A DNA stretch of 32,000 nt from a bacterium (GTDB taxonomy: Bacteria > Babelota > Babeliae > Babelales > RVW-14). The stretch is taken from the NCBI GenBank assembly GCA_016699045.1, contig CP064957.1, forward strand, positions 33,613 through 65,612. Direction: 5' to 3'. Within the stretch, counting starts at the first letter, position 1; each line of letters starts with the position of its first letter. Made by a program: the position numbers and the translations under genes. Below are positions 12,629 to 28,241 of this stretch, one piece after another. The notes under the pieces are model-generated. The model was not told where the DNA came from. It saw only the letters and a list, made by a program, of their open reading frames with translations, and searched no databases.

Positions 12629-12934
12629 ATGGAAATTATGAATTATCAAGATATAGAGCCATACCGAAAAGATCTTATAAAAATTATCTTCCACTATTTC
12701 CCATCGTGCCAAATATATCTTTTTGGATCACGAGCAACGCAAACTAATAACCCACATTCAGATATTGATTTGGCGATTGATTGTGGCCGCGTGGTGCCAT
12801 TGCACGATCTTTCTGCTTTGATTGAGGCCATTGACGGACTTAATATTCCGTTTTACGTTGATATTGTTGATGTACGTAATACATCGCCGGTAATGGTTGA
12901 GCAAATTAATAAATGTGGGATTTTATGGAAATAA
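12629..12934 (+). CDS. Minimal nucleotidyltransferase (MNT, HI0073-like antitoxin component), pair 1
   Basis: The sequence IYLFGSRATQTNNPHSDIDLAID carries the G-S...D-x-D polymerase-beta-fold NTase motif, and VDIVDV supplies the third acidic residue. About 100 aa, overlapping the partner gene. Confidence 0.85.
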   Translation: MEIMNYQDIEPYRKDLIKIIFHYFPSCQIYLFGSRATQTNNPHSDIDLAIDCGRVVPLHDLSALIEAIDGLNIPFYVDIVDVRNTSPVMVEQINKCGILWK

Positions 12935-13362
12935 TGACAGGAATTGAAAAATTAATTATTAAACAAACAACAACCTTACAAGCGTTGGCAAGACTTAAAG
13001 AAGAATTAGAAACTTTAAGTAAGCTTGATAATAGTTCATCTGGTGATCAAAAATTAATACGTACCTATCGTAATTCTGTAACCAAACTTTTTGAAATTTC
13101 ATTCGATCTCTTTTGGAAATATGTTAAAGAATACCTTTGGGGCATGCACGGCATTGATCAACAATCTCCCAAAAATGTATTTCGCGAATGTTTTAAGCTT
13201 GACTTTGTCAGTCAGGCAGAAACAACTCAGCTCTTAACGATGGTTGATGAACGCAATAAGTTGGTTCATACCTACAATGAAGAAGTGGCAATTCTTATCT
13301 CGTACAACATTCCTCAGTATTATAACTTGATGAATCAGTTGCTTGATGCTATGAAAGTTTAA
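12934..13362 (+). CDS. HI0074-like NTase substrate-binding / HEPN-type protein (putative toxin component), pair 1
   Basis: R-x4-H motif in DERNKLVHTY, and homology to 20498..20926. ATG 12934 overlaps the upstream TAA as TAATG; in-frame upstream ATGs at 12913 and 12925 are alternative starts. Confidence 0.8.
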   Translation: MTGIEKLIIKQTTTLQALARLKEELETLSKLDNSSSGDQKLIRTYRNSVTKLFEISFDLFWKYVKEYLWGMHGIDQQSPKNVFRECFKLDFVSQAETTQLLTMVDERNKLVHTYNEEVAILISYNIPQYYNLMNQLLDAMKV

Positions 13363-20213: not shown

Positions 20214-20516
20214 ATGAAAGAATTAGATATAAAAACAAAAGAAAAGATAATAAATATTGTGCATGCGCTTATCGCTGATGCTGATATTTATTTGTTTGGT
20301 TCGCGAGCAACTGGGCAGCACCATGCCCACTCAGATATTGACCTTGCACTCGATGCTGGAAAAAAATTGGATCGGTTGGTAGTTGGCGAGGTTAAAGATT
20401 TACTGAGCGCTTCAAATATTCCCTATAAATTTGATGTTGTTGATGTGCATAATGTTGGCGATGATTTAAAAAGAGATATTATGAAAGAGGGTGTTTTATG
20501 GGCAAAGAGAAAGTAA
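20214..20516 (+). CDS. Minimal nucleotidyltransferase (HI0073-like), pair 3
   Basis: IYLFGSRATGQHHAHSDIDLALD plus FDVVDV, a clear paralog of 12629..12934. Confidence 0.85.
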   Translation: MKELDIKTKEKIINIVHALIADADIYLFGSRATGQHHAHSDIDLALDAGKKLDRLVVGEVKDLLSASNIPYKFDVVDVHNVGDDLKRDIMKEGVLWAKRK

Positions 20517-20926
20517 CTAAAAAAATAGATCATTTTGAAAAAGCTTTAAAAACATTGAACACGGTTCTGGTAAGATTTGAAGAAGTGACGCCAGATTACA
20601 AAGATTATCTTTTTATTCGCGATTCACTTATTCAGCGCTTTGAATATTGTACTGATATGTTTTGGAAAGTTCTTCGTGAGTTTATTATAGAAAAGCATGG
20701 CGTTGATGTGCTGGCAAGTCCCAAGGCTGTTCTTAAAGAAGCATTTGATGTGTATTTGATTGATGAAAAGCAATATACGCAGTTATTGACATCCGTTAAT
20801 GATCGGAATTTAACGTCGCATGCGTATCAAGAAGATGTTGCATTGCAGATTGTTGAATATGTTGCTGATTCTTACCAGCTCATGAAAATAATTATCGAAA
20901 AGATAAATCAAGAAATAAATCTTTAG
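20498..20926 (+). CDS. HI0074-like NTase substrate-binding / HEPN-type protein, pair 3
   Basis: R-x4-H motif in NDRNLTSHAY, plus SLIQRFEYCTDMFWKVL. It overlaps the upstream gene by 19 nt. Confidence 0.82.
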   Translation: MGKEKVTKKIDHFEKALKTLNTVLVRFEEVTPDYKDYLFIRDSLIQRFEYCTDMFWKVLREFIIEKHGVDVLASPKAVLKEAFDVYLIDEKQYTQLLTSVNDRNLTSHAYQEDVALQIVEYVADSYQLMKIIIEKINQEINL

Positions 20927-23136: not shown

Positions 23137-24837
23137 ATGATGAGTAATTTTTTGTCTTGGGTCGTCTGTGTGCAAATTATTGGTGAGTCGTTGCCAATTA
23201 GTAGCTCTTCGCACGTGCGCTTGCTTATGATGCTTGTGTCATTGGTTGGTGGGGCAGCTTTTTTTGGACAACCAATCCCTGATTTTTTGGATCATTTTTT
23301 GCATGGCTCAATGGTCTTGATTATTATATTTTTTTTTCGACACGTGTGGGTGCCGATCTTTTGGCGACTTGTTGATGTGGTGCGTGCGTATGCGTTTCGC
23401 GTGCGTGTGCGCGATAGCCAGCGGGCGTTGGCTTGTGTGTGCCTGTGGCTGATTTTTTATGTTGGTTGTGCGAGTGTGATTACCGCACTTTTTTATAGTG
23501 TGATTAAAGTTATTTTGAAGTACAATGCGGTGCTGGCGCATGAAGCTACCATGCTTGTTGGTTTGTGTGTGACAGCAGGTTTGCTGTGGTCTTTGCGGTA
23601 TGTGGACCTTTGTCCTTCAATCTTTCAGTCTTCGCTAAAGCTTCGCCGGACTTCGTCGACAAACTGCTCCTTCGATCCTTCGACAAGCTCAGGACGTACG
23701 GAGCTCAGGGCGAACGGGCTTCAGGATAAGTGTGACGGGTGTAAAAAGTCTTGTAACGTAGAGAAAAATATTCACGCTCTCTCCGTTCGCCCTGCTTGTC
23801 CGTCGAAGCTTGTAGAGCGTAGTCGGGAGCTTGCCACGCCCTTTAAAGCCACGAAGGGCGAAGAATGGGTCGAAGGGTCTTGTGTTTCTAAAAAAAATGC
23901 AGCTCAGAGCGATCTTAGTAAGTGTGAATATGCTTCTCGTTGTTCCAAGGCCTGTTCTCAAAACCTGAGGGACAAAGAACAGGACAATTTTGAGACGAGC
24001 AAAAGAACCTTATGTTTTAATGAAAAGCGCAGAATAGAATTGAATCAGCGACAAGCGCAAGGTGAACGGACTGATTGCGTATGTGATTCTTGTGATTATG
24101 TGTCTCATTGCAAAAAAAAGGTATGTCCGTGCTTGCCTGTTGAAGAGTCTGGGGTTGCTGAGAAAAATGAAGACCCTTCGACAAGCTCAGGGTGTACGGG
24201 GCTCAGGGTGTGTGGGTCTTTGAATAAGCAAGAAAAGCGTAATGGGGAGTCTTTTTGTTCTTTGGCTTTCAATAACAAATCCGTATGCCCTGAGCTTGTC
24301 GAAGGGTCTGCCTGCTCTGCGTGCCCGTCGAAGTGTCAACGAAGTCGGGATCTTGTCTATTCGACACAGTCTGTCGACTTGTCCGGCGAAGCTTTAGCGA
24401 AGTCGGAAGGGTTGAGGGGCGAAGATCAAAGAGCGAAGACGGAAGAAAAAAAACTCACAAGTTTTAAAATCTACGCCATTCTCGGTCTGGTTCAAGGCCT
24501 CGCACTGCTGCCCGGCATCTCGCGTTTTGCCAGCACGTACGTTGCTGCTCGTTGGCTTGGCTTTTCAACACGACGCGCTTTTCAGGTGTGCTTTTTGCTC
24601 GAGCTACCAATTGTGCTTGCAGCGTTTTTAGTGCTGGGTGTTGGCGGGGCGTGCAGGCAGCATGGCTGGGCAGTGGTTGGTGAACCGAGCGTCATGCTCA
24701 CCATAGTTGGTGCAACGGTTGTTGGTTATGGAGCTCTTTGGGCAGCCTGGTGGTTGGCAGAGCGGCGCTTATTGTGGCTGTTTTCAGTATATCTACTGCT
24801 GCCCATCTTGACTGTGCTATACTTAATTTTTCAATAA
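23137..24837 (+). CDS. uppP: Undecaprenyl-diphosphate phosphatase (UppP/BacA) with a repeat-derived in-frame insertion of about 277 aa
   Basis: The N-terminal box is IIGESLPISSSSHVRLL (compare E-x-x-x-E-x-LP-x-SS-x-x-H of BacA). The C-terminal box is LPGISRFASTYVAARWLG (compare PG-x-SRSG) and is followed by TM helices. The recognisable halves (about 163 and 127 aa) add up to a normal UppP length. Confidence 0.85.
   Translation: MMSNFLSWVVCVQIIGESLPISSSSHVRLLMMLVSLVGGAAFFGQPIPDFLDHFLHGSMVLIIIFFFRHVWVPIFWRLVDVVRAYAFRVRVRDSQRALACVCLWLIFYVGCASVITALFYSVIKVILKYNAVLAHEATMLVGLCVTAGLLWSLRYVDLCPSIFQSSLKLRRTSSTNCSFDPSTSSGRTELRANGLQDKCDGCKKSCNVEKNIHALSVRPACPSKLVERSRELATPFKATKGEEWVEGSCVSKKNAAQSDLSKCEYASRCSKACSQNLRDKEQDNFETSKRTLCFNEKRRIELNQRQAQGERTDCVCDSCDYVSHCKKKVCPCLPVEESGVAEKNEDPSTSSGCTGLRVCGSLNKQEKRNGESFCSLAFNNKSVCPELVEGSACSACPSKCQRSRDLVYSTQSVDLSGEALAKSEGLRGEDQRAKTEEKKLTSFKIYAILGLVQGLALLPGISRFASTYVAARWLGFSTRRAFQVCFLLELPIVLAAFLVLGVGGACRQHGWAVVGEPSVMLTIVGATVVGYGALWAAWWLAERRLLWLFSVYLLLPILTVLYLIFQ
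23623..24453. repeat. Nest of type A and type B palindromic repeats inside uppP, bounded by inverted type B copies
   Basis: The core CGACAAGCTCAG occurs at 23681 and 24179, and reverse-complemented at 24290. Type B hairpins lie at 23795-23828, 24322-24349 and 24381-24407. CTTCGCTAAAGCTTCGCCGGAC (23629-23651) is the inverse of the copy at 24381-24407. Confidence 0.85.
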
Positions 24838-24853
24838 GCGAAAGGAGCGTTTT

Positions 24854-25147
24854 ATGATTGAAGAGCAGTACAAAGATCGGCTTGTTGCCATCATTTCAAA
24901 ACACCTGCCGGGGTGTTCAATTTATATGTATGGTCCGTGGGCTCAAAGTCAGGGTTGCTTGCCGATGCCGATTGGTGTGGCGCTTGATGATCGTGCACAA
25001 GAAATTGATATCGCGGTACTTGGCACTATTTTAGACGACCTTCATGAATCAACTATTCCGTATTGTGTTGAGCTTGCCGATATGAATGATGAGTATGATG
25101 ACATTGTGAAAGAAGTAAAAAAGGGTTTTGTGGTATGGAAACAATAG
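24854..25147 (+). CDS. Degenerate MNT-like protein with NTase catalytic motif lost, pair 4
   Basis: It aligns with 20214..20516, but IYLFGSRATGQHHAHSDIDLALD has become IYMYGPWAQSQGCLPMPIGVALD (GS to GP, DID to PIG). AGGAG ribosome-binding site 16 nt after the uppP stop. Confidence 0.75.
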   Translation: MIEEQYKDRLVAIISKHLPGCSIYMYGPWAQSQGCLPMPIGVALDDRAQEIDIAVLGTILDDLHESTIPYCVELADMNDEYDDIVKEVKKGFVVWKQ

Positions 25148-25578
25148 CATGTCGGCACCAGCAACGGTTGCATGAAAAACTTAAAGCGTTGGAAGAGGTT
25201 TTGTATGATATCAATCATGTAAGCGAATGGTGCGATGAACAGGACCAGGTAAGAGCTACCAAGCTTGCACACATGATGCACGATTCTTTAACCAAGCGCT
25301 TTGAATATTGTGTTGATGAGTTAAGTAACTATTTAGCAGCGCGCGTCCAAAAACCAGGGGCAATGAGTCGCGCAAAAAATATGCGCGATGTGGTTCGGTT
25401 GGCCGTACATGCAGGCGTTTTAACACCTCAACTTGGGGAGCAAGCGCTCGTGATGCTTTCGATAAAGAATAGTATTAGCCAGCTTGAACGTGCTGACCGA
25501 GAACCGTTTGTTCAAGATGTTAGCAACTATTGCAATTTGATGAAAACTATTGTTGAAAAACACGATCTGCAAAAATAA
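25135..25578 (+). CDS. Degenerate HI0074/HEPN-like protein with R-x4-H motif lost, pair 4
   Basis: SLTKRFEYCVDEL aligns with SLIQRFEYCTDMF of pair 3. The motif position NDRNLTSH reads SIKNSISQ (R to K, H to Q). It overlaps the upstream gene by 13 nt. Confidence 0.72.
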   Translation: METIACRHQQRLHEKLKALEEVLYDINHVSEWCDEQDQVRATKLAHMMHDSLTKRFEYCVDELSNYLAARVQKPGAMSRAKNMRDVVRLAVHAGVLTPQLGEQALVMLSIKNSISQLERADREPFVQDVSNYCNLMKTIVEKHDLQK

Positions 25579-25679
25579 TTTTTGTTAGAAATTTTAAAGT
25601 GTTGAAAAATTTTTAACAAAAGCGCTATGCTTAACAACAGGGGAAGTAGGGAATCGTTTTTTTGTGGAGAGGGGATACT

Positions 25680-28241
25680 ATGTGGCGCAAGAAAAAATTT
25701 AAACGGGTTACTATGCGCGCTTTTTTGGATCGGCAAAAACAGCTTTTTAAAGCGAGTGCTGGAACCAAGTCTGCGTGGTATCACCAAGAAGTTTTGGGTG
25801 TTGGTTTAACGGGTTTATTTATTTTTTTAGCACTAGCGCTTTTTTCCTACAATCCGCAAGATCAAACGTTGTTGAGTACTGGATTGCGCATTGGTGCTGT
25901 TTCCAACTGGGCAGGAGTTATTGGTGCTCATGTAGCGGCCGTGCTTGTTTATTTTTTCGGTTCGGCTGTGTATGTTTTGTTGGCATGTGTTATGGTTCCT
26001 GCTTATCTTTTTTTAGCGCAAGGCTCTGTTTGTGCTACGCGCATCCGCTGTGTTTTTTTACCGCTGTTATTGTTAGCAAGCGCGGGTTTGTGCAATCGAT
26101 ATGGCTTTGATGTTACGAGTAGTTATGCCGGTGGCTTGTTGGGTTATGCGGTATGTAGTTTGCTTGAATTTCCTTTTGGTTATGGCGGGACCGCGATCAT
26201 TTTGTGGTCGTTGTTGTGGATGAGTGTTTCTACGATTGGTCAAATTTCGCTGTTGAGCATGCTGAATAATGCGGTGCAGTATGGCTACTGGGCAACTAAG
26301 TATACCGTGTTGGCAGTGAGTCGCACGGTGCATTTGGTTGCGGTTAAAAGCTACTGGGTTTTTTGTACTGTGTTTGCTCGTGGCAAGCAATATCGCGAAG
26401 AGAATGAAGCGTTTGAACCGGAAGATGTTTTTGCGCAAACGTATAGCGATGGTTTTGTGGTGCCGTTAGTTAACGAAGATTCTTTTAACGCTGTCTTTGC
26501 AGAAAAAACAGAGCAGGGCGAAGGCGTTGCGCATGCGGCGCCAAAGAACGTGAATGTTTATGAATGGGATGCTTATGCGCCACCAGTAGCTGGTGTTGGG
26601 GCTCACGTGGTGGCAACAGACCTTGAGCAGCGTGAAGCTTTGATTGCCAAATTTGCTCATAAAAATATGAGAATGTTTGTGCGACATGAAGCCGCGGCGC
26701 CTTTGCGTGAGCGCTTGTTTTTGCCCAATACCGTTTTGAAAAAAAATATCTTTACTGGTCCGTTGGCCGCGTATGCGCGTGTGCTTGAAGCAATTAGTTT
26801 ATATGAACATGCTCGAGTACTGCAGGCTAAAAAATTTACGCTTCCTGAGGTAAGTTTATTTGATACACATAGCGATGGGCAGATTGACCAACGAATTCAA
26901 GATGAGGCGTTAGCTCGTGGAAAAAAACTTGAAGAAAAGCTTCAGCATTTTGGCGTAAAAGGCCGCGTGACCAACATTAAGCCAGGACCTGTGATTACGT
27001 TGTTTGAGTATCAGCCAGAAATTGATAGTAAAATTAGTAAAATTACGGCGCTTGAAGATGATTTGGCGATGGCGCTTTCAGCATTGAGTATCAGAACTAT
27101 TGCACCGATTCCTGGTAAGAATGCGGTTGGATTTGAAATTGCTAATCCAACGCGTGAGAGTGTTTATTTTGCAGACATTGTGCGTTCTGAAGATTTTGAA
27201 AATTTTCAAGGCGAGTTGCCGCTAATTTTAGGTGTTGACGTGGTGAAAACGCCGGTCATTGTTGATTTGGCAAAAATGCCTCACTTGCTGATTGGCGGGA
27301 CGACTGGTTCTGGTAAATCGGTTGGCTTGAACGGCATGTTGGCAAGCTTGTTGTGCAAATGTACGCCAGAACAACTGCGCTTAATTTTAGTAGATCCAAA
27401 ACGTCTTGAGTTTACGCCGTACGCCGACATTCCTCATTTGCTTTTCCCAATCGTTACTAACCCTGCGCGTGCTACGGGTGTTTTAAAGTGGGTGGTACAA
27501 GAAATGGAAGAGCGCTATGAACGTATGGCCGGGCTTGGGGTAAGGAATGTACTTGAGTATCAACGAGCAGTAGCGCATGGCATGCGTGATCAAGAAGGGC
27601 ATGTGTTAAAGCCAATGCCGTTTATTGTGGTGATGATTGATGAGCTGGCAGATTTGATGATTGTTGCTGGCAAAGATGTTGAAACGAATATTGTGCGGAT
27701 TGCGCAAATGGCACGAGCTTCTGGGATTCATATGATTGTGGCAACGCAACGGCCATCGGTTGATGTGGTAACGGGTTTAATTAAAGTGAACTTTCCTAGC
27801 CGTGTTGCGTTTCGTGTTTCATCAAAAGTTGACTCGCGCACCATTTTGGACCAACAAGGCGCTGAAAAATTATTGGGCCGCGGAGACTTGTTGTTTATGA
27901 GTTCTGCTTCAACTAATTTAAAGCGCGTGCATGCGTCGTACATTTCTGATCAAGAGATTCAACACTTGGCATCGTTTTTGCGTGAACAGCGCAAGGCGCA
28001 GTATCTTAATTTGCATGAGGTTTTGGAAGTTGCCAATGAAGATGGACGTGGTGATGCGGAAGATCAATTGTTCCCAGAAATAATTGATTTTTTAAAGACT
28101 ACGAGCGAAATTTCAATATCCATGTTGCAACGTCGCTTTCGAATTGGCTTTAACCGCTCTGCACGGATTATTGAGCAGCTTGAAATGAGTGGTTTGATTG
28201 CGCCGGCACAGGGTAGTAAGCCGCGTAAAGTTATTCGTTAA
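25680..28241 (+). CDS. ftsK: DNA translocase FtsK/SpoIIIE
   Basis: N-terminal TM helices, Walker A GGTTGSGKSVGLN, Walker B VVMIDELADLM, the ATQRPS motif, and a C-terminal gamma winged-helix region (MLQRRFRIGFNRSARIIEQLE). I place the start at ATG 25680, after GGAGAGGGGA. Confidence 0.93.
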   Translation: MWRKKKFKRVTMRAFLDRQKQLFKASAGTKSAWYHQEVLGVGLTGLFIFLALALFSYNPQDQTLLSTGLRIGAVSNWAGVIGAHVAAVLVYFFGSAVYVLLACVMVPAYLFLAQGSVCATRIRCVFLPLLLLASAGLCNRYGFDVTSSYAGGLLGYAVCSLLEFPFGYGGTAIILWSLLWMSVSTIGQISLLSMLNNAVQYGYWATKYTVLAVSRTVHLVAVKSYWVFCTVFARGKQYREENEAFEPEDVFAQTYSDGFVVPLVNEDSFNAVFAEKTEQGEGVAHAAPKNVNVYEWDAYAPPVAGVGAHVVATDLEQREALIAKFAHKNMRMFVRHEAAAPLRERLFLPNTVLKKNIFTGPLAAYARVLEAISLYEHARVLQAKKFTLPEVSLFDTHSDGQIDQRIQDEALARGKKLEEKLQHFGVKGRVTNIKPGPVITLFEYQPEIDSKISKITALEDDLAMALSALSIRTIAPIPGKNAVGFEIANPTRESVYFADIVRSEDFENFQGELPLILGVDVVKTPVIVDLAKMPHLLIGGTTGSGKSVGLNGMLASLLCKCTPEQLRLILVDPKRLEFTPYADIPHLLFPIVTNPARATGVLKWVVQEMEERYERMAGLGVRNVLEYQRAVAHGMRDQEGHVLKPMPFIVVMIDELADLMIVAGKDVETNIVRIAQMARASGIHMIVATQRPSVDVVTGLIKVNFPSRVAFRVSSKVDSRTILDQQGAEKLLGRGDLLFMSSASTNLKRVHASYISDQEIQHLASFLREQRKAQYLNLHEVLEVANEDGRGDAEDQLFPEIIDFLKTTSEISISMLQRRFRIGFNRSARIIEQLEMSGLIAPAQGSKPRKVIR

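Follow-up and report, generated by a model that had tools for sequence, protein, structure and literature searches.

An MntA/HepT-type gene pair with replaced catalytic motifs is retained under purifying selection between uppP and ftsK in one genus of Babeliales

Results

Organization of the uppP–ftsK locus

The window analyzed here is the whole 32,000-nucleotide stretch of contig CP064957.1 (positions 33,613–65,612), which belongs to a 1.45-Mb genome assembled as one contig. The gene pair under study, pair 4, sits on the + strand between uppP and ftsK and consists of two small overlapping genes, one encoding a nucleotidyltransferase-like (NT-like) protein and the other a HEPN-like protein. 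The features of the locus, in window coordinates, are as follows:

23137–24837, + strand: uppP, 566 codons, with its TAA stop at 24835–24837
24838–24853, + strand: 16-nt spacer between uppP and the NT-like gene, with a ribosome-binding site (RBS) AGGAG at 24843–24847, 6 nt 5′ of the ATG
24854–25147, + strand: NT-like gene, 97 aa, MntA/HI0073-fold protein without the catalytic residues
24932–24976, + strand: former GSX10DXD nucleotidyltransferase motif, reading G27-P28-X10-P39-I40-G41
25070–25072, + strand: E73 codon, aligned with the third Mg-binding Asp (Shewanella MntA D71)
25135–25147, + strand: 13 nt shared by both ORFs (ATGGAAACAATAG), the way genes of this family are usually coupled
25135–25578, + strand: HEPN-like gene, 147 aa, five-helix HepT/HI0074-fold protein without RX4HXY
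25282–25308, + strand: retained α2 block D50-S-L-T-K54-R-F-E57-Y58 (family version DSxIQRFEY)
25465–25488, + strand: former RX4HXY motif (Y-loop), reading K111-N-S-I-S-Q116-L-E118
25579–25679, + strand: 101-nt spacer between pair 4 and ftsK, with a promoter-like site at 25602–25631; the ftsK ATG is at 25680

An earlier note on this DNA had reported two open reading frames overlapping by 13 nt, the first starting 16 nt behind uppP with an AGGAG site of its own, and all of this is borne out. The same 13-nt overlap is found in 39 of 69 family pairs, and the 16-nt spacer with its RBS does not vary across three species of the genus. A scan of the uppP/pair 4 junction detected no terminator-like site, which, with a spacer this short, makes co-transcription of pair 4 with uppP plausible. 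On the other side, the spacer at 25579–25679 is ~95% identical in the three species, which are close to saturated at synonymous sites. Immediately 3′ of the stop lies an AT-rich 7-bp palindrome, and the spacer also has a promoter-like TTGAAA-18-TATGCT; it probably serves as promoter and leader of ftsK and is under constraint.

The uppP gene itself spans 566 codons here versus 352–376 in the two sister species and about 260–350 elsewhere, the surplus coming from a repeat-rich insertion that keeps the frame and encodes peptide motifs such as STSSGRTELRANG and PELVEGS. A 79-codon antisense ORF runs over the junction of the pair-4 genes (25042–25281, − strand) and is also open in a sister species (G001, L012:1795–2034); most likely it is no gene but a by-product of conserved coding on the opposite strand.

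Relationship to HI0073/HI0074-type modules

The gene order of pair 4, MNT 5′ and HEPN 3′ with an overlap, is that of MntA/HepT modules. Within its own genome, the NT-like protein matches five intact paralogs (E-values of 1e-15 to 3e-7, 25–37% identity) and the HEPN-like protein matches four (E-values of 2e-6 to 0.4), with at most 25% identity to any paralog. Among 1.84 billion representative proteins, intact relatives of the HEPN-like protein are found with a best E-value of 4.7e-7. Standard domain models respond poorly to pair 4: PF08780 (NTase_sub_bind) scores 20.4 bits on the HEPN-like protein, under its cut-off of 31.8, and neither TIGR01987 (HI0074) nor any other NCBIfam model matches it; the NT-like protein has no match at E ≤ 1 in Pfam (PF18765 Polbeta, PF01909 NTP_transf_2) or NCBIfam (NF047752 MntA_antitoxin). 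Pair 3, from the same window, passes PF18765 (52.6 bits), PF08780, and TIGR01987.

The pair-4 orthologs were also compared, profile against profile, with 65–66 family members from which pair 4 had been left out; the HEPN-like protein matched at 99.0% probability (E = 4.7e-18) and the NT-like protein at 99.5% (E = 9.5e-23). Because of these values, the homology of pair 4 is clear despite the sub-cut-off Pfam and NCBIfam scores, and its kinship with pairs 1 and 3, which the earlier note had asserted, is correct. E-values from HMMs built on Babeliales alignments that include pair 4 were not counted as homology evidence.

Searches of the solved structures with the single sequences of both proteins returned nothing useful, and family profiles were required. 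On the HEPN side, the family profile matches 1wwp, 1wty, 8xdj, 1jog (HI0074), and 5yep_B (HepT), and on the NT side 1no5 (HI0073), 5yep_A (MntA), and 8xeh_E, with E-values of 4.8e-23 to 8xdj and 7.3e-13 to 1no5. AlphaFold2 models computed from family alignments average a pLDDT of 87.0 for the HEPN-like and 91.7 for the NT-like protein. Foldseek pairs the HEPN-like model with the HepT/HEPN toxins 6m6u_D, 8xdj, and 1wwp (TM about 0.6) and the NT-like model with HI0073 (1no5, TM 0.82), followed by MntA. The models are compatible with a nucleotidyltransferase fold and a five-helix HEPN fold, although the retention of fold is partly imposed by the method because active relatives dominate the underlying alignments. 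Judged by sequence, we assign pair 4 by descent to the HI0073/HI0074-type modules (MntA/HepT, type VII, class-I HEPN/MNT).

Replacement of the AMPylation motifs

In Shewanella MntA, the GSX10DXD motif with D39, D41, and D71 binds ATP and Mg2+ (PMC7641770), and the tyrosine of the RX4HXY motif is the AMP acceptor (PMC7641770, Yao et al. 2020). We read the corresponding columns of pair 4 from MAFFT alignments of Babeliales sequences, from 73- and 72-sequence alignments, and from the profile-profile comparisons, all of which agree. The last place YGPWA...LPMPIxVALD of the NT-like protein on FGSRA...SDIDiAlD of the family, and MLSIKNSIxQxE of the HEPN-like protein on MixxRNxTSHxY. Counted over about 70 intact relatives from many phyla, the replaced columns are:

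NT-like P28: Ser in 68 of 69 relatives
NT-like P39: Asp in 69 of 69
NT-like position 41 (Gly, Glu, or Ala by lineage): Asp in 69 of 69
NT-like E73: third Mg-binding Asp, in 67 of 69
HEPN-like K111: Arg in 70 of 70
HEPN-like Q116: His in 68 of 70
HEPN-like E118: AMP-acceptor Tyr, in 70 of 70
HEPN-like position 64 (Ser or Asn): Trp in 69 of 70
HEPN-like position 65 (Asn or Gly): Lys in 70 of 70
HEPN-like M83: Pro in 68 of 70

In place of GSX10DXD and the third Asp, the NT-like protein reads GPX10PXG and E73, and in place of RX4HXY the HEPN-like protein reads KX4QXE in all five lineages that carry the pair. The changes first noticed at this locus, from G-S...D-I-D to G-P...P-I-G in the NTase partner and from R-N-L-T-S-H to K-N-S-I-S-Q in the HEPN partner, therefore fall in the catalytic columns, both in the alignments and in the profile-profile comparisons. 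The list grows by two, the AMP-acceptor Tyr, now Glu, and the third Asp, also Glu. Chance can hardly account for a joint change of all these columns, 97–100% conserved in relatives, that is fixed in five lineages. At position 41 of the NT-like protein, once catalytic, Gly, Glu, and Ala interchange freely. That the motifs are intact and were merely misaligned at first reading has virtually no chance of being right and is refuted, as MAFFT and the pair-4-free profile-profile alignments place K111, Q116, E118, P28, P39, and G41 in the motif columns and an alternative GS...DxD or Rx4–6H pattern is absent from both sequences.

Each of the substitutions GS to AT, DXD to EXE, and Tyr to Ala or Phe abolishes AMPylation in Shewanella (PMC7641770), and because these are much milder than the changes in pair 4, loss of AMPylation is supported. 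The same motif was probed in the Legionella MNT with G36A/S37T and D48E/D50E variants (PMC11586414). Judged from the replaced columns, pair 4 lacks every element of the AMPylation circuit, on the donor as well as the acceptor side.

Other conserved positions persist, namely D50, S51, R55, F56, E57, N112, and R84 in the HEPN-like protein and G27, A30, A43, P69, D76, and W95 in the NT-like protein. R84 aligns with R73 of the Legionella HEPN, a key residue for MNT binding and tetramer formation (PMC11586414), and this equivalence fits continued partner binding. With a pI of 4.4 and a charge of about −9 (family median −2.3), the NT-like protein is more acidic than any other of the 72 family members, and its phosphate-binding arginines have been lost.

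Conservation and selection across the genus

We compared pair 4 among the source genome (G000), two further species of the same genus (G001 and G002), and three contigs from metagenomes or sequencing runs (L156, L157, and L158), five distinct lineages in total. In all five, the pair occupies the same position between uppP and ftsK with the same ORF lengths, the same 13-nt overlap, and the same ablated motifs, and the number of frameshifts or stops is zero. Pair-4 orthologs are 82–88% identical in amino acid sequence, versus 58–84% for active pairs, 68% for the ftsK N-terminus, and 58% for uppP. The dN/dS values, calculated by the Nei–Gojobori method and including for pair 4 unsaturated comparisons (dS 0.2–0.6), are:

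NT-like gene of pair 4: 0.00–0.10
HEPN-like gene of pair 4: 0.05–0.12
Active-pair orthologs in the same genomes: 0.09–0.22
ftsK N-terminus: 0.09–0.18
uppP: 0.30–0.33

Fisher tests of non-synonymous against synonymous differences in pair 4 give p-values of 1e-13 to 1e-28, and the NT-like genes of G000 and L156 differ at 11 synonymous and 0 non-synonymous positions. Pair 4 is thus under strong purifying selection as translationally coupled genes. Constraint on single residues can be resolved no further because the pair is confined to one genus.

The earlier note had offered decay and exaptation as alternative accounts of the lost motifs. Plain early pseudogenization, with both frames open only because too little time has elapsed, could claim the loss of both canonical motifs and an NT-like protein no longer recognized by Pfam and NCBIfam models, but it is highly improbable: the orthologs carry neither frameshift nor stop in five lineages whose synonymous divergence reaches 0.8–2.2, and the dN/dS of 0.00–0.12, the Fisher tests, and the 11-to-0 count in the NT-like gene all refute decay. 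Synteny and a host-level GC content, described below, speak against it as well, and the part of the original proposal that is supported is exaptation.

A HEPN ORF on a short contig of G001 (L045, G001:C2:1–2458; ORF at ~717–1139, − strand) is orthologous to the active pair at 1.084 Mb of G000. It reads NRDLIVSNY where RNLTSHTY is expected, is 45% identical to its ortholog with a dN/dS of 0.22, and has no NTase partner that could be found on that contig. In contrast to pair 4, it looks like a genuinely drifting copy.

Insertion history and distribution

In at least 19 other Babeliales genomes, drawn from many genera and families, ftsK directly follows uppP (with a 93-nt spacer in the nearest genus), and none of these genomes has a member of the HI0073/HI0074 family beside uppP. 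Of 261 searched genomes of the order, which represent 145 genera, 3 carry pair 4, all in one genus. Given the adjacency elsewhere and the presence in a single genus, the module entered the genus ancestor directly 3′ of the uppP stop and 5′ of the region with the ftsK promoter. In a word-indexed search of 5.8 billion proteins, all relatives of pair 4 that were recovered had 82–98% identity, and an exhaustive search of 1.84 billion representative proteins found none between 33% and 82%; because of this gap, a half-dead intermediate that would order the losses is lacking.

Maximum-likelihood analysis of 99 concatenated pairs puts pair 4 on a stem of 2.14 changes per site, the longest internal branch of the tree (next longest 0.89, median 0.125). 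Divergence within the pair-4 clade is 0.2, versus 0.36–0.47 for active ortholog pairs of the same species. The history of pair 4 is a burst of change followed by constraint. At 0.430, its GC content ranks at the 75th percentile among the genome's 882 long ORFs; it has been brought to host level and matches core genes. The five motif-intact pairs (pair 1 at 12629–13362 and another at 20214–20926 of the window, and three others at 419734–420461, 1084574–1085262, and 1156831–1157555 of genome contig C1) have GC contents of 0.345–0.380, at the 2nd–18th percentile, and this AT-richness fits mobile or recently acquired DNA.

The three genomes with pair 4 hold 5, at least 5, and 2 active pairs, and pair 1 is kept nearby in all three. 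The set of active pairs differs among these genomes while pair 4 is constant.

The pair-1 orthologs of G001 and G002 (L036, G001:C32:51260–54673, and L038, G002:C15:177645–181058) have genes with 100% identical DNA inside 3.4 kb at 95.4% identity, whereas the pair-4 region is only 83–86% identical between the two genomes. This difference suggests that the lineages recently exchanged DNA around an active pair, or that the assemblies were cross-binned.

Residual catalytic potential of the HEPN-like protein

By sequence, the closest characterized homolog of the HEPN-like protein is the HEPN of L. pneumophila (8xdj, profile E-value as above). Its R98A and H103A mutants are reported to be still RNase-active and toxic, whereas loss of either Mg2+ ligand in the dimer cleft, by Q44A or E47A, abolishes RNase activity and toxicity (PMC11586414). 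These two ligands align with the Gln and Glu of the IQRFE block of the family, which are K54 and E57 in pair 4. Lysine cannot ligate Mg2+. It stands in the Q44 column in 11 of 70 otherwise intact relatives, and E57 is invariant in pair 4.

The initial view that both active sites are lost thus holds for the canonical motifs, as the profile alignments confirm, and needs qualifying for the RNase center of the HEPN partner, where E57 is kept beside K54. Because RX4H is dispensable and E47 (equivalent to E57) essential in Legionella, the HEPN-like protein could still cut RNA. Because each published mechanism is without at least one required residue, Arg and His in one and Gln in the other, it is probably, though not certainly, non-catalytic. 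The data fit well with the RX4HXY motif being conserved in this branch mainly as a loop shown to the transferase. Such a loop would have become dispensable as a block after AMPylation was lost, while the α2 block kept its role.

Pair 4 might then be a toxin–antitoxin system with a changed mechanism, a Mg2+-dependent RNase neutralized by stoichiometric binding of the NT-like protein alone, in a shift from type VII to a type II-like mode. We consider this unlikely. The behavior of the Legionella mutants, the invariance of E57 within a wholly retained α2 block, and the occurrence of Lys in the Q44 column of otherwise intact relatives all speak for it, as do the unusual acidity of the NT-like protein, which an RNA-mimicking cleft blocker might share, and the coupled, antitoxin-first gene order. 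The obstacle is the lysine, no Mg2+ ligand, at a position where an alanine alone killed activity and toxicity in Legionella; both known catalytic solutions miss a required residue, and W64, K65, and P83, which are 97–100% conserved in the family, are gone too. Fixed synteny, core-like GC, and constraint above that of the active paralogs suggest a host gene rather than a selfish module.

Discussion

We consider it reasonably likely that pair 4 is an exapted, non-enzymatic two-protein complex that serves the host and is co-expressed with uppP. The HEPN-like protein combines loss of Rx4–6H with retention by selection, as do exapted, non-catalytic HEPN proteins. After a class-I HEPN/MNT module had inserted between the uppP stop and the ftsK promoter region in the genus ancestor, a burst of change stripped the AMPylation circuit, removing GSX10DXD and the third Asp from the NT partner and the Arg, His, and Tyr of the Y-loop from the HEPN partner. 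Strong purifying selection has acted ever since on the translationally coupled pair, which is probably transcribed with uppP. With the α2 cleft block (DSxxKRFEY) and the presumptive partner-binding R84 kept, a HEPN-like oligomer may still bind its very acidic NT-like partner, and the complex would act as a binding or regulatory unit of the host (RNA- or nucleotide-binding) rather than as a poison–antidote module.

A different use of the same proteins, along the lines suggested in the earlier note, would be as a decoy, sponge, or dominant-negative factor that buffers the toxins of the two to five active pairs, either by co-assembly of the dead HEPN with active HepT or by binding of these toxins to the dead, acidic NT-like protein. 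HEPN toxins work as dimers or tetramers with composite clefts (PMC11586414), and all three genomes with pair 4 also hold active pairs, pair 1 always being close by. We regard such buffering as quite unlikely. With no more than 25% (HEPN-like) and 37% (NT-like) identity to the paralogs and a branch of 2.1 changes per site, mixed oligomers are unlikely to form; the turnover of the active pairs beside a constant pair 4 is a further, mild argument.

It is also conceivable, if decidedly unlikely, that pair 4 is a "pseudo-toxin–antitoxin" locked in the neutralized state, in which the invariant E118 mimics the AMPylated Tyr, the acidic NTase fills the RNA cleft, and the complex is a hub for toxins or RNA targets. 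In that case K54 and E118 may be joined, without metal, by a salt bridge that spans the HEPN dimer. If true, such a complex could soak up or sense HepT-type toxins or the RNAs they target, whether the cell's or introduced by mobile elements, an obligate intracellular parasite would be immune to the toxin family from which the pair descends, and doubly dead MntA/HepT pairs would be a recurrent functional class.

The preferred reading, a non-enzymatic complex in the service of the host, can be set against known systems. The HEPN-MNT pairs of L. pneumophila (8XDJ, 8XEH, 8XEO) and H. influenzae HI0073/HI0074 (1NO5, 1JOG) form the PF08780/TIGR01987 branch. Pair 4 shares with them the two small folds, an NTase gene followed by an overlapping HEPN gene, the FE(Y/F) block of α2, and the Arg equivalent to R73. 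Unlike them, it has replaced GSX10DXD, the third Asp, RX4H, and the acceptor Tyr, carries Lys at the Q44 equivalent, and holds one fixed position under strong constraint, where they are patchy and AT-rich. Shewanella oneidensis MntA/HepT (5YEP, 6M6U, 7BXO; PMC7641770), whose folds are homologous and give the top Foldseek matches, exemplifies the ancestral scheme, in which the MNT AMPylates the RX4HXY tyrosine; every residue proven there by mutagenesis to serve AMPylation or to accept AMP is absent from pair 4.

Non-catalytic HEPN domains are known from MtlR, from Swt1, and from fusions to active nucleotidyltransferases of the KNTase and GlnE type (PMC3710099, Anantharaman et al. 2013), and "domestication" of MNT-HEPN modules is an accepted idea (PMC3710099). 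Like the MtlR- and Swt1-type domains, which are binding or regulatory, the HEPN-like protein has lost Rx4–6H and kept the domain, with no sequence relationship between pair 4 and MtlR. In those cases, however, the transferase is active or the HEPN domain stands alone, whereas pair 4 keeps separate, coupled genes with both partners disabled. A literature search found no paper on a separate two-gene pair in which both partners are disabled and kept under selection.

Toxin–antitoxin modules are usually regarded as selfish, mobile, and short-lived. Known MNT-HEPN domestications keep at least an active transferase; in pair 4 both enzymes are probably disabled, and yet its constraint is tighter than that of neighboring housekeeping genes, in a 1.45-Mb genome ill able to afford ballast. 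This suggests a non-enzymatic use of the MntA/HepT scaffold. With active paralogs in the same genome for comparison, the pair is a clean natural experiment and an evolutionary test of which part of an HI0074-type HEPN is catalytic, the AMPylation loop having proved expendable and the α2 block not.

Departures from the motifs are also seen elsewhere in the family. An unrelated pair in the metagenome-assembled genome "bacterium SI047_bin97" (L118:2073–2812) is partly degenerate in both partners, with GF for GS in the NTase and RNLTTN for RNxTSH in the HEPN protein. Single replacements in HEPN proteins were observed at two further loci, His to Tyr in L096 and Arg to Ser in L030 (G019).
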